From: a virus
Taxonomy: Duplodnaviria; Heunggongvirae; Uroviricota; Caudoviricetes
IMG/VR virus record: IMGVR_UViG_2711768014_000012
Reading direction: 5' to 3' (one strand)
Length of the DNA stretch: 36,201 nucleotides
This document shows positions 1-6,000 of this stretch, in pieces; the first letter of the stretch is position 1, and each line of letters begins with the position of its first letter. Made by a program: the position numbers.

Positions 1-3000
1 GGTCGGGTTAAACTGCACGCCAGCTCCCCACGCCAGAGACGTGTTGCTGTGGCGACCGTCATCACTTCCGGTCAGCACATCGTGCGTTTTCCCCTTGTTG
101 TCAGTTACGCGAAGATAATCCCCGGAGAAAGTCGACACACGGCTGTAAGCCACACCCGCCATCGCATACGCGCTGAACCATTCATTCACGCGCACAGACG
201 GCCCCGCCATTACGCTGAACCAGCGGTTACGAACGGAATCTTCATGCCAGCGGGTATCGCTGTAACGGGTCAGCTGGCGATTCTTGTCTCCTGCATAGCT
301 GAATGACGTCACCAGCCCCAGTGTGTCCGTAAACTCATAACGGTATTTCACGTTAATCCCGTTCAGATCATCACTGCCGGGGACGTTCGTCGAGGCATGA
401 AGATACCCCGCGCTCAGCGTGGACTGATGTTCAGACGCCCATGCAGGCGCACCGGATACGGCCAGGCAAATGGCTGCGGACAAAATTGCTGCACAAACTT
501 TACGCATAATTACCTCTCGCTTTTCTGCAATAAAAAAGGCGTCATTCCTGACGCCATTTATTGGGGTTATAAATATTTCAACGAATACTGATGCCGGAAG
601 CGGCTTTTTTGGTCACAATCACCGTACAGTCGGTGATATTGCCTGCCCCCTGATTGCCTTTCTGGAAAATCTTAAACTCCAGAGTGACGCTTCCCCTGCC
701 ACTCGGCATATCAATAACTGCACTGTAACTACCGGGAATGGCCCCTTTAGTTTCTCTGGATGCGATTAATACGCCGTTTTTNNNNNNNNNNNNNNNNNNN
801 NNNNNNNNNNNNNNNNNNNNNNNNNNNNNNNNNNNNNNNNNNNNNNNNNNNNNNNNNNNNNNNNNNNNNNNNNNNNNNNNNNNNNNNNNNNNNNNNNNNN
901 NNNNNNNNNNCGTGCCTCCTGGGTTATTTCCGCTCCCCGGATCGTCATACGCTATACCGTTAAAAATAATGGGCGGAATAATAATCTGGCGGTCAAAGTT
1001 ATGATCATCGCTGATGGTGACTGTAACCGTACCGTCTGGTGTTTCCGTGTTACCCCACGTACCGACTTTTTTCGGGAAGGCTTTTGATACAGCTTTAACG
1101 AAATCCCCTCTGACCTGGGTCGCCTCCAGCATGCCCTTAATCGTACAGTTCTGGTTAATCGTGACATTGTTGAGCGTCCCTGAATTTGCATTCACATTAC
1201 CGCTGATATCCGCATTTTTAGCGGTCAGCTTTCCGTCTGGTGTCAGGGAAAATGCCGGCGGATTTCCACCGCTGGTAATGGCGGGGGCTGTCAGGCGCTT
1301 CAGGAACACGTCNNNNNNNNNNNNNNNNNNNNNNNNNNNNNNNNNNNNNNNNNNNNNNNNNNNNNNNNNNNNNNNNNNNNNNNNNNNNNNNNNNNNNNNN
1401 NNNNNNNNNNNNNNNNNNNNNNNNNNNNNNNNNNNNNNNNNNNNNNNNNNNNNNNNNNNNNNNNNNNNNNNNNNNNNNNNNNNNNNNNNNNNNNNNNNNN
1501 NNNNNNNNNNNNNNNNNNNNNNNNNNNNNNNNNNNNNNNNNNNNNNNNNNNNNNNNNNNNNNNNNNNNNNNNNNNNNNNNNNNNNNNNNNNNNNNNNNNN
1601 NNNNNNNNNNNNNNNNNNNNNNNNNNNNNNNNNNNNNAGCAGCTCTTTACCGAGATGGGATTCGGTTATCTGGCCTTTGAAAAAATCCAGGTAACCTTCC
1701 GCATCATCGCTCGCCCGACCGACAGCCTCCACGAATGCTGATTTGCCGACGGTGTTCACACTGCGGATATAAAAGTAATAATCATGGCCCGGCTTAATAT
1801 TGATACTGGCGGCTATCCAGTACAGCCCCGTGCCAAGGTAGCGGGCTGTGGTTTCAACCTGCCTGATATCCGCAATCCGTTTTTCCGAGAACCAGAACTC
1901 AAACTGTACCGTCGGGTCATAAACCGCAAGATGCGGCGTGGCGGTTATCTGAAAATAGCCCGGCGTCAGCTCAATCCGCGACGGCGCTGCCGGTGCGGCA
2001 ATCCGGAACGATACCGACGCCGGATCGCCCTGCTGCCCCCACGCATTTACTGCCCGGACTGTCAGCCTGTAGTTCCCCAGAGCCAGTTGTGTGAAGCGGT
2101 AAGTGGTTTCCGTCGTCCGGGCCGTGCTGACCAGCCGCTCACGGCCGTCATCCGCTGCCACGGTCAGGCGAAGCAGGAAGCTCACGCCCTTCACCACCTT
2201 CGGCGTGTCCCAGCGGGCCAGCACCTGGTATTCCCCGCTGTCTGCGGTGACTTCTGCGGTCAGGTGCTGCACCGCTGGCGGCGTGACACCATTTACCGTG
2301 CCGCTCTGGTCGCCGTCAAAGTGCGCCCCGTTATCCACGATGGCCTCTTTTTCCGGTACATGCTGCACGGCAGTGATGGCATACGTGCCGTCGTCGTTCT
2401 CACGGATACTCACGCAGCGGAACAGGCGCTGGCGCAGCGTCGGCAGCTTCAGCCCCCATACGCTGTATTCAGCAACGCCGTCAGGAACACGGCTCACTTT
2501 CACCTTCACGCCGTCGGTGACGGACTGAACCTCCACGCTGACCGGACTCCCCTGCCCGTCNNNNNNNNNNNNNNNNNNNNNNNNNNNNNNNNNNNNNNNN
2601 NNNNNNNNNNNNNNNNNNNNNNNNNNNNNNNNNNNNNNNNNNNNNNNNNNNNNNNNNNNNNNNNNNNNNNNNNNNNNNNNNNNNNNNNNNNNNNNNNNNN
2701 NNNNNNNNNNNNNNNNNNNNNNNNNGCCGGAAGATGGCAGCGTGATTTCACGGTCGAGCGTCAGCGTCCGGGTCTGGCTGTTTACCGCCAGCACGCGCCC
2801 GCCGGTGCGGATACCGGCATAGTCATCATCGCAGATTTCAATGACATCGCCCGGTACATGGCGAAGCCCTTCGGCACCCACGCTGAAGTCCACGGTCTGC
2901 GTTTCCAGCAGTTCTGTTTTAATCAGCCACAGCCCGGCGCGGTGTGCCTGCCCCCGGCTGGTACAGCCAAAAGCATCCATCTTCGTGACGTTACGACCGT

Positions 3001-6000
3001 AACGGGCAATGGCCTGCGTGTCCTCCACAAGCTCTGTCGCCGTCTCCCAGCCGTTATTCGGGTCAATCCAGTTCACCTCAACGGCATTATGGCGGTCCTT
3101 CAGGGCGCTGAAGCTGTAGCGGAACGGCGCACCATCATCCGGCATCACCACATTACTGCGGTTATAGGTCCACACCTTATCCGACGGTCGGTCCTGCACG
3201 AACGTCAGCGTCTGCCCGTTCCATACCGGCATACAGCGCATCGCCGAGCAGAAATCACTGAGCACATCCCACGCCTTGCGCTGTGTGGTCAGGTACGCAT
3301 TACAGGTGATGCGCGGCTCCGTGCCGCCAAAACCGTCCGGCACCGACTGATCGCAATGCTGGCCGATGACATACAGCGCCCATTTGTCCACATCCGCCGC
3401 ACCAAGACGTTTCCCCATGCCGTAGCGCGGATGGGTCAGCATATCCCACAGACACCAGGCCATGTTGTTGCTGTATGCTGGCTTAAACGTTCCGTCCCAG
3501 ATACCGCTGTATTGCCGCGTCTGCGGGTTATAGCTCGACGGCACCTGCAGAATGCGCCCGCGCAGATGATAATTACGGCTCACCTGCTGGCTGCCGAACT
3601 GCTCCGAATCCACCTGCACGCCGACCAGTGCCGTGTTCGGGTAGCACTGTTTCACATCGATGATTTCGGTGTATGACGACCAGAGCGTTTTGTTCTGCAG
3701 CTGGTCTGTGGTGCTGTCCGGCGTCATCCTGCGCATCCGTATATTGAACGGGCGCGGCGGCAGGTTACCCACCACCACCGAGGCCAGATACTGCGAGGTG
3801 GTTTTGCCCTTAATGGTGATGTCTTTTTCCGTCACCCAGCCACCATTACGTTGTATCTGAACCAGCAGGCGGACTTCCGACGGATTCCTGTCCCCCTTTG
3901 AGGTGGTTTCCACCAGTGCCTGCACACCGAAGGTAAAGCGCAGACGGTCAATGTTTGCCGACGTGATGGTCCGGGTGATCGGCGTGTCGTATTTCACTTC
4001 CGTACCCAGTACCGTCTCGGAACCTGATGATTCAAATCCCTCCGGCGGTGTCTGTTCCTGCTCACCTGCCCGGAACACCACCGTGACACCAGAGATGTTG
4101 GTATTCCCCTCACTGTCCAGCACCGGTGTACTGTTCAGCAGCACGCTTTTTAATCCATCCACCGGACCTTCAACCGGCCCTTCGCTGATGGTATCGATCA
4201 CACTCAGCAACTGCGTGGACTTCAGGTTGTCCTTTGCTTCGCGCGGGGTATGCCCCTTACTGCTGCCTTTACCCATTCCTCACGCTCCATAAACGACAAA
4301 ACCGCCCGCAGGCGGTTTCTCATAAAACATTTTGCATCAGCGACCAATCACCACAACCTGACCACCATCCCCTTCGTCTGCCGTGCTGATCTCCTGAGAA
4401 ACCACACGTGACCCCACGCGCATTTCACCGTACAGAACAGGCAGAACATTGCCCTGGGCAACCATGTTATCCAGTGAGGAGAAATAGGTGTTCTGTTTGC
4501 CGTTATCTGTACTGGCTGCCGTGGGCGTCCTGGCTTTCGGTGCCAGCATCTGCGCCACTCCGCCCAGGATCATACTGGCCCCTGCCGCATACATGCCCGA
4601 TACAGCCGCGGCCCCCAGCCAGCCCACAGGGTTCCACCATGCCACCGCAATCAGCGCCGCCCCAAGCACCACCTGAAACACACCGCCACTTTTAGCTCCC
4701 GCCAGACGCGGCACGATGTGGATCACGGCACCATTTGCCAGCGGCTCATTAAGACGGGCAGATAATTCATTTTCGCCTGCATCACGCCCGGCAATGCGCA
4801 CCTGATACCAGCCCTCATTCAGTTTCTGACGAAACGCCGGGATCTGCATGGCCAGCGCCCGGATGGCTTCGGACCCCGTTTTCACTCGAAGGTCGATGCG
4901 GCGGCCAAATCGTTGTAAATCCCCGTAAAGGCAGATGCGTGCCATGCCCGGTGACGCCAGAGGGAGTGTGTGCGTCGCTGCCATTTGTCGGTATACCTCT
5001 CTCGTTTGCTCAGTTGTTCAGGAATATGGTGCAGCAGCTCGCCGTCACCACAGTAAATGGCGGCATGATTCGGCACCGATGAACCAAAACAGCACAGCAG
5101 CACATCGCCCGGCTGCGCCGCTGACAACGGCACCTGATACAGCCCTGTAGCNNNNNNNNNNNNNNNNNNNNNNNNNNNNNNNNNNNNNNNNNNNNNNNNN
5201 NNNNNNNNNNNNNNNNNNNNNNNNNNNNNNNNNNNNNNNNNNNNNNNNNNNNNNNNNNNNNNNNNNNNNNNNNNNNNNNNNNNNNNNNNNNNNNNNNNNN
5301 NNNNNNNNNNNNNNNNNNNNNNNNNNNNNNNNNNNNNNNNNNNNNNNNNNNNNNNNNNNNNNNNNNNNNNNNNNNNNNNNNNNNNNNNNNNNNNNNNNNN
5401 NNNNNNNNNNNNNNNNNNNNNNNNNNNNNNNNNNNNNAAATATCTTTCCCCCTCCGGCGTTCTTACCACGAAGCCGCACGACTCCGCTGGAGCACATCGC
5501 CGGGCGTGCGCCAGAATCGCTGATTCTGTCTCTGTCATGGGATTTACTGCGAAAGTTTGTTAATGGAAAGGAAGCCGCCAAAGTTGCCGACGTTATTGCG
5601 AAACTTACAGCCGCTCAGGCATTTGCTGCATTTATCCTTCGTGATATCGGACGTCGGCTGATCATATTCATCCGCGACCGCCGGACCGTGATAACCGCAC
5701 TCATCGCCGCGATAGGTCCAGGTGCAGGTGTTGGCCAGCATGATACGTCCCGGAAAAACGGCACCGTCCGTTTCCGTCGGNNNNNNNNNNNNNNNNNNNN
5801 NNNNNNNNNNNNNNNNNNNNNNNNNNNNNNNNNNNNNNNNNNNNNNNNNNNNNNNNNNNNNNNNNNNNNNNNNNNNNNNNNNNNNNNNNNNNNNNNNNNN
5901 NNNNNNNNNNNNNNNNNNNNNNNNNNNNNNNNNNNNNNNNNNNNNNNNNNNNNNNNNNNNNNNNNNNNNNNNNNNNNNNNNNNNNNNNNNNNNNNNNNNN

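Follow-up and report, generated by a model that had tools for sequence, protein, structure and literature searches.

The tail tip protein J of an Escherichia coli lambdoid prophage carries the phage 434 (h434) allele of the receptor-binding domain

In the J trimer of phage lambda, the receptor-binding domain (RBD) is immunoglobulin (Ig)-like and four bottom loops enter the lumen of the LamB trimer from the extracellular side. On binding to LamB, the RBDs move apart from 1.8 to 3 nm, and this change passes up the β-prism and the helical shaft and opens the tail tip (PMC11101478). Host specificity is set by the C-terminal part of J: the receptor of phage 434 is OmpC, and a lambda phage in which the 434 tail-fibre gene replaces J binds OmpC (PMC11101478, PMC3509688). 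The 434 fibre trimer docked on trimeric OmpC has been described as an AlphaFold3 model, and the RBDs of phi330, 434 and lambda show pairwise identities of 35–40% (PMC12502783). When C-termini of natural prophage gpJ proteins are grafted at lambda residue 964, lambda particles are redirected to OmpC (PMC11338833). Here, we describe the J gene of virus record IMGVR_UViG_2711768014_000012, a 36,201-nucleotide (nt) stretch of DNA (the window) that represents most of a lambdoid prophage. Over its last ∼150–185 residues, its J protein has the Ig-like RBD allele of phage 434 (h434).

The J coding sequence occupies positions 578–4276 on the minus strand, where all features given below lie unless stated otherwise, with an ATG at 4276 and a TGA at 580–578. 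The gene is the lambda-family tip attachment protein (central tail fibre) J of an E. coli lambdoid prophage. As the earlier note on this DNA had reported, three runs of N interrupt it (N-run 1, 782–910; N-run 2, 1313–1637; N-run 3, 2561–2725); in the open reading frame (ORF) listing, the frame remains open through all three and comprises 1232 codons as written. The visible J DNA is 96–99.9% identical to J of lambda, 434, phiSTEC1575-Stx2k and E. coli A14. The Pfam gpJ set is complete (FNIII-A_GpJ, Phage-tail_3, Ig_J, Ig_J_second and Ig_GpJ_C), with PF24801, PF13550, PF24421, PF24489 and PF12421 each scoring far above the cut-off. The fibre family PF09327 was matched in the unmasked homologue only, N-run 2 covering the fibre stretch in the window. 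The closest unmasked J homologue in turn matches the solved lambda J chain 8iyk_J with E = 0 and 2149 bits. ORFs upstream of J in the same orientation correspond to the tape measure protein, M, L, K and I, and the resulting gene order H-M-L-K-I-J-lom is also that of A14, 434, lambda and phiSTEC1575.

To locate the point at which J departs from lambda, the window protein was aligned with J of lambda, 434 and phiSTEC1575-Stx2k and identities were counted over visible residues. Visible J is 96–98.5% identical to lambda J until approximately lambda residue 990. The baseplate-hub part (residues 1–517; 2726–4276), within which Pfam places FNIII-A_GpJ (3656–4021) and Phage-tail_3 (2783–3289), has 98.5% amino acid identity to lambda J and 99.94% DNA identity to the A14 prophage J. 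Identity to lambda J is ∼95–97% over residues 573–879, and the two Ig/FNIII domains (1679–2305), matched as Ig_J (1991–2305, E = 3.6e-41) and Ig_J_second (1679–1987, E = 6.1e-40), are 95–97% identical at the amino acid level to both lambda and 434. Just before the RBD, the unmasked end of the central straight fibre (β-prism; 1133–1309; residues 990–1047) still retains 90% identity to lambda, but the value drops to 41% over residues 1048–1122 and to 36% over the final 67 residues, among them GSVTLEFKIFQKGNQGAGNITDCTVIVTKKAASGISIR. The earlier note had proposed that the N-terminal half of J follows lambda and that the C-terminus does not. The second proposal is borne out, whereas the first describes the likeness too narrowly: the lambda-like share is ∼85% of J, and the divergence is confined to the last ∼185 residues. 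At the DNA level, homology to lambda breaks off near lambda codon 990, ∼192 nt into the stretch beyond N-run 2, whereas homology to 434 carries on through to the J stop codon. The divergent domain is nevertheless still homologous to the lambda RBD, with PF12421 found in both and a match of E = 1e-50 to the solved RBD chains 8xcj and 8iyk.

The RBD, with its Ig-like C-terminal domain PF12421, spans positions 581–1132, of which 129 nt are masked, and is of the phage 434 (h434) type. Over its 142 visible residues it is 97.2% identical to 434 J (138 of 142) and 99.3% identical to phiSTEC1575-Stx2k J, as opposed to 38.7% for lambda J. In BLASTP comparisons, the two visible pieces of J gave 127/133 and 63/67 identical residues with 434 J and 80/118 (mostly fibre) and 20/54 with lambda J. 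The RBD DNA is 97.4% identical both to 434 and to the hybrid phage lambda h434 imm21, which has the same RBD sequence as 434. The host-range allele of this hybrid is the classical h434 allele (PMC9119081). The C-terminal allele of the window J is the classical h434 allele, a point that the earlier note had overlooked.

Two other RBD alleles were considered and rejected. The LamB-binding allele of lambda is ruled out by 38.7% identity over the 142 visible residues against lambda residues ∼990–1132, with three indels, and the A8-type OmpC-binding allele (PDB 9wca) is ruled out by an identity of ∼41% over the RBD. The masked part of the RBD gives no sign of a lambda-like C-terminus emerging once the gap is closed: the 30 nt that correspond to N-run 1 encode RYTGYGFEVR in every 434-type relative, as opposed to TYSMCYLKVL in lambda.

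The simplest interpretation draws on three observations: the RBD is nearly identical to that of 434, 434 uses OmpC, and exchange of J transfers OmpC use. Because these point in the same direction, we consider it very probable that the window J forms a lambda-type trimeric central fibre with an h434-type Ig-like RBD that docks on OmpC. Its receptor is most likely OmpC and not LamB, judging from the sequence of the RBD, in agreement with the earlier expectation of a receptor other than LamB. By homology with lambda, the first ∼990 residues would form a conical baseplate hub, two FNIII/Ig domains, an α-helical shaft and a β-prism fibre, and three J chains would assemble into the central fibre. 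The bottom loops of the three RBDs would then enter the extracellular mouth of a trimeric porin, which would be OmpC for this allele. Binding to the porin would spread the RBDs, and the change would travel up the fibre, leading to opening of the tail tip and ejection of the DNA. We infer this trimeric docking mechanism by analogy with lambda. The h434 allele itself was probably gained when phages recombined near lambda codon 990, at the conserved junction of fibre and RBD. This junction is the usual route of host-range swaps in lambdoid phages.

Several points weigh against this interpretation. The OmpC assignment rests on 97% identity to 434, and the visible RBD differs from 434 by R1194G, I1203V, Q1205H and G1210R (window residue first, in window numbering), while at least 10 further RBD residues are hidden under N-run 1. 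OmpC-binding gpJ variants A8 and 1A2 accept different OmpC alleles (PMC11338833), and single J mutations can alter porin use in lambda and phage 21 (PMC11336670). A 434-type RBD could, through its substitutions relative to 434, recognize a different porin or only certain variants of OmpC. All four visible substitutions fall within the last 40 residues, and one or a few J mutations are sufficient to switch lambda and phage 21 among LamB, OmpC and OmpF (PMC11101478, PMC11336670). We nonetheless regard it as quite improbable. The 142 visible residues are 97% identical to 434, the same R/I/Q/G variant occurs in phiSTEC1575-Stx2k and SCEC020023, and the RBD is 99.5% DNA-identical to that of phage isolates able to form plaques on K-12 or ECOR13 (for example, mEp332, PhiR42_1 and Kati). 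The papers found on isolated phages with the exact RBD allele (mEp332, PhiR42_1, PhiR68_2, Kati and ev243) give no receptor data, and nothing indicates a different receptor.

The 434-type RBD is widespread. The RBD DNA (window 578–1132) is present in 74 phage records at 90–99.5% identity, including 434, lambda h434 imm21, mEp460, mEp332, cdtI and phage 2851, together with many Stx1a-, Stx2a-, Stx2c- and Stx2d-converting phages. Among 5426 complete E. coli genomes, 1874, or about a third, cover at least 80% of the stretch comprising lom and the RBD. RefSeq labels such gene pairs 'phage attachment tail tip protein J' and 'Ail/Lom family outer membrane beta-barrel protein'. The arrangement of a 434-type J allele followed by lom is already characterized and very common, and there is nothing unusual about it.

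Comparison with the prophage of E. coli A14 bears on whether J as written represents a single gene. From position 11300 to its end, the window is 100.0% identical to the A14 prophage (24.9 kb), and identity is 99.9% for the tail genes as far as the first half of J. Strain A14 originates from a Virginia opossum in Mexico. In the second half of J (578–2560) and in lom, identity to A14 is only 87–97%, as opposed to 99.9–100% in the rest of the prophage, and it shifts across the N-runs of J from 99.94% to 96.2%, 87.3% and 95.6%. Either the host-range end was replaced locally by recombination or the assembly is chimeric: exchange among J alleles gives rise to such a pattern, and so would scaffolding of a polylysogen from short reads. 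Two of the observations count against our interpretation of J as one gene with an h434-type end. The identity changes coincide with the N-runs, so that scaffolding could have joined pieces of co-resident prophages into the J gene as written. In addition, among the matches listed from the 5426 complete E. coli genomes, none matched any second-half J segment at 99% or more over its full length, the best matches for single segments being 98.6–98.8%.

A scaffold or consensus chimera of co-resident lambdoid J copies, or a pseudogene with defects concealed by the N-runs, would account for the mosaic structure and the odd length of J as assembly artefacts. Several features would fit such an origin: each of the six N-runs in the window falls in a gene of which E. 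coli genomes carry several copies (L, K, three in J, and the lysis region), J segments recur within a genome (median 2 places, maximum 14), and every N-run differs in length from the homologous stretch in near-identical relatives. It would also fit the result of an exact search with a 73-nt pattern from the RBD region, which found no match in three large collections (viral_contigs, genome_contigs and metagenome_contigs). However, fine-scale mosaicism is normal for J, phiSTEC1575, A14, SCEC020023 and 434 each being a different mosaic. The reading frame is unbroken across all three N-runs, and the visible segments are all intact open frames whose alignments with J genes of functional phages contain no gaps. 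We therefore consider a chimera or pseudogene unlikely. Even if it were correct, the pieces would all remain ordinary J segments, the last of them 434-type, and the identity of the C-terminal piece would not change.

The lengths of the N-runs differ from those of the homologous stretches. N-run 1, inside the RBD, has 129 nt where relatives have 30. N-run 2, which covers the α-helical shaft and the start of the β-prism, has 325 nt (327 nt unaligned), and its counterpart has 285 nt in the lambda/434/SCEC020023 type and 369 nt in the phiSTEC1575/A14 type. N-run 3, in the hub region, has 165 nt where lambda, 434, phiSTEC1575 and A14 have 21 nt encoding T(T/A)LISLV. Outside J, the N-run in K (5152–5437) has 286 nt compared with 373 nt in A14 and that in L (5781–6011) has 231 nt compared with 297 nt, both between flanks that are 99.9% identical, and the N-run in the lysis region (20991–21367) is 50 nt short of A14 although it lies inside the 24.9 kb of 100.0% identity. 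The length offsets are thus +144, −42 and +99 nt in J, −87 nt in K, −66 nt in L and −50 nt in the lysis region. The five intragenic N-runs (three in J, one each in K and L) are offset by exact multiples of 3, with open frames, which would occur by chance in ∼1 of 243 cases. The N-runs could be scaffold gaps or the result of deliberate masking. Because their lengths depart from those of the homologous stretches, the length of 1232 amino acids is, on this comparison, an artefact. The visible flank of N-run 2 is of the lambda/434 type, which suggests a shaft of the same type; the true length of J is then probably 1137 amino acids, and 1165 at most. The gaps can be filled only by analogy with relatives.

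If the N-run lengths were instead faithful, J would contain in-frame insertions of 48 amino acids in the hub and 33 amino acids in the RBD and would be a new variant with an extra receptor-contact loop. Were the 129-nt RBD and 165-nt hub stretches real insertions of this kind, the extra loop could alter which OmpC variants or which porin is recognized. The multiple-of-3 offsets in all five intragenic N-runs are the sole support for this idea, which we consider extremely improbable. The same logic would demand deletions of 29 and 22 amino acids in the conserved K and L proteins despite their near-identical flanks, and the sixth N-run is shorter than its A14 counterpart by 50 nt within perfectly matching sequence. 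Alignments reach both edges of every N-run, and extra sequence at the N-run sites was present in 0 of the 74 phage records and in none of the best-matching E. coli genomes listed or retrieved. We infer that the masked stretches of J are ordinary.

Downstream of J, the earlier note had described a terminator followed by a lom-type gene with its own Shine–Dalgarno sequence, and each of these elements could be located. An intrinsic-terminator-like hairpin, GGCGTCAGGAATGACGCC followed by TTTTTTATT (538–555), was recognized by a scan as having 7 pairs, 5 of them GC, and the tail TTTTTTATTG. A GAGAGG Shine–Dalgarno sequence read from the sequence (513–518) lies 5 nt before the ATG of lom at 507. The first 169 codons of lom, which encodes an Ail/Lom outer-membrane β-barrel protein, occupy positions 1–507, where the gene is cut by the start of the window; the ORF matches Ail_Lom (PF06316) with E = 8.6e-103 over profile positions 1–169 of 199, and the remainder lies beyond the window. 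The lom DNA is 99.1% identical to that of phiSTEC1575-Stx2k, and the N-terminus MRKVCAAILSAAICLAVSGAPAWA resembles a signal peptide by eye. In the 434 record, the homologous positions between J and lom are annotated as a terminator and a ribosome-binding site (RBS). A simple scan of the J–lom spacer did not find a sigma-70-like promoter. At the other end of J, a GC-rich hairpin between gene I and J (4298–4319) was a terminator-like scan match, and the 434 record annotates a terminator there. A 630-codon plus-strand ORF (1784–3676) that is antisense to J and spans N-run 3 was taken as a stop-free antisense frame of a GC-rich gene and is most likely not a gene. In A14, the closest relative, the J–lom–stfR–tfa module is followed by a gene for a protein with a reverse-transcriptase domain (15871–17001 of the A14 stretch compared), which would lie beyond the window start.

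Elsewhere in the prophage, Rfam matches above the gathering score identified a C4 antisense RNA (29619–29706, 82 bits) and, adjoining it, the Hfq-binding small RNA isrK (29731–29807, 64 bits). Both matches are in the early/immunity region, beside KilA-N, ash and antirepressor-like genes. By homology, the head module (∼11300–17000) includes a fusion of a ClpP-like prohead protease with a major capsid protein and a DUF1441 small-terminase-like protein. The joining of a lambda-type tail to a non-lambda head module is ordinary lambdoid mosaicism.

For annotation, the tail tip of this prophage is better labelled as a 434-type, probably OmpC-using J than as a LamB-binding J, and the 434-type label helps to predict the strains that are open to infection or lysogeny by the phage. 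Beyond this, the locus illustrates modular exchange of the host-range domain at the lambdoid fibre/RBD junction and has little further significance.

Among the described systems, lambda J (NP_040600.1; PDB 8iyk, and 8xcj/8xck with LamB) belongs to the same family and has the same domain order as the window J. The two differ in the RBD, where identity is 36–39% and the window protein has a 6-residue insertion (IAYDDP), a 2-residue insertion and a 6-residue deletion, which the alignment places in loop regions, and lambda J binds LamB, unlike the receptor that we propose for the window J. Lambda Lom, of the Ail/Lom family, likewise lies directly after J, and the window lom product is a strong Pfam match to this family. 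The J protein of phage 434 (UMO75286.1, OL657226.1) is alike in architecture throughout, with 98.6% identity over residues 1–517, and ends in the same C-terminal sequence (...TDCTVIVTKKAASGISIR) as the window J. Beyond residue 573 there are 19 visible substitutions relative to 434, four of them inside the RBD (G/R, V/I, H/Q and R/G, 434 residue first). The likeness to 434 extends to the terminator, RBS and Ail/Lom gene 3′ of J, whereas the prophage backbone is unlike that of 434, having an e14/CPS-53-like immunity region and the head module with the protease/capsid protein fusion.

Closest in the RBD are gpJ of phiSTEC1575-Stx2k (WCJ00196.1) and E. coli prophage gpJ proteins such as WP_103042706.1 (SCEC020023), with 99.3% protein identity in the RBD and 100% identity over the last 204 nt. 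phiSTEC1575 and A14 have a helical-shaft allele that is longer by 28 amino acids, whereas the visible flank in the window is of the lambda/434/SCEC020023 type. A8 gpJ, an engineered lambda chimera with a natural E. coli prophage RBD (PDB 9wca/9wcb), and phi330 J are further lambda-family proteins with Ig-like RBDs, and for these the dependence on OmpC is experimental. The A8 RBD is ∼41% identical to the 434-type RBD and is a distinct allele.

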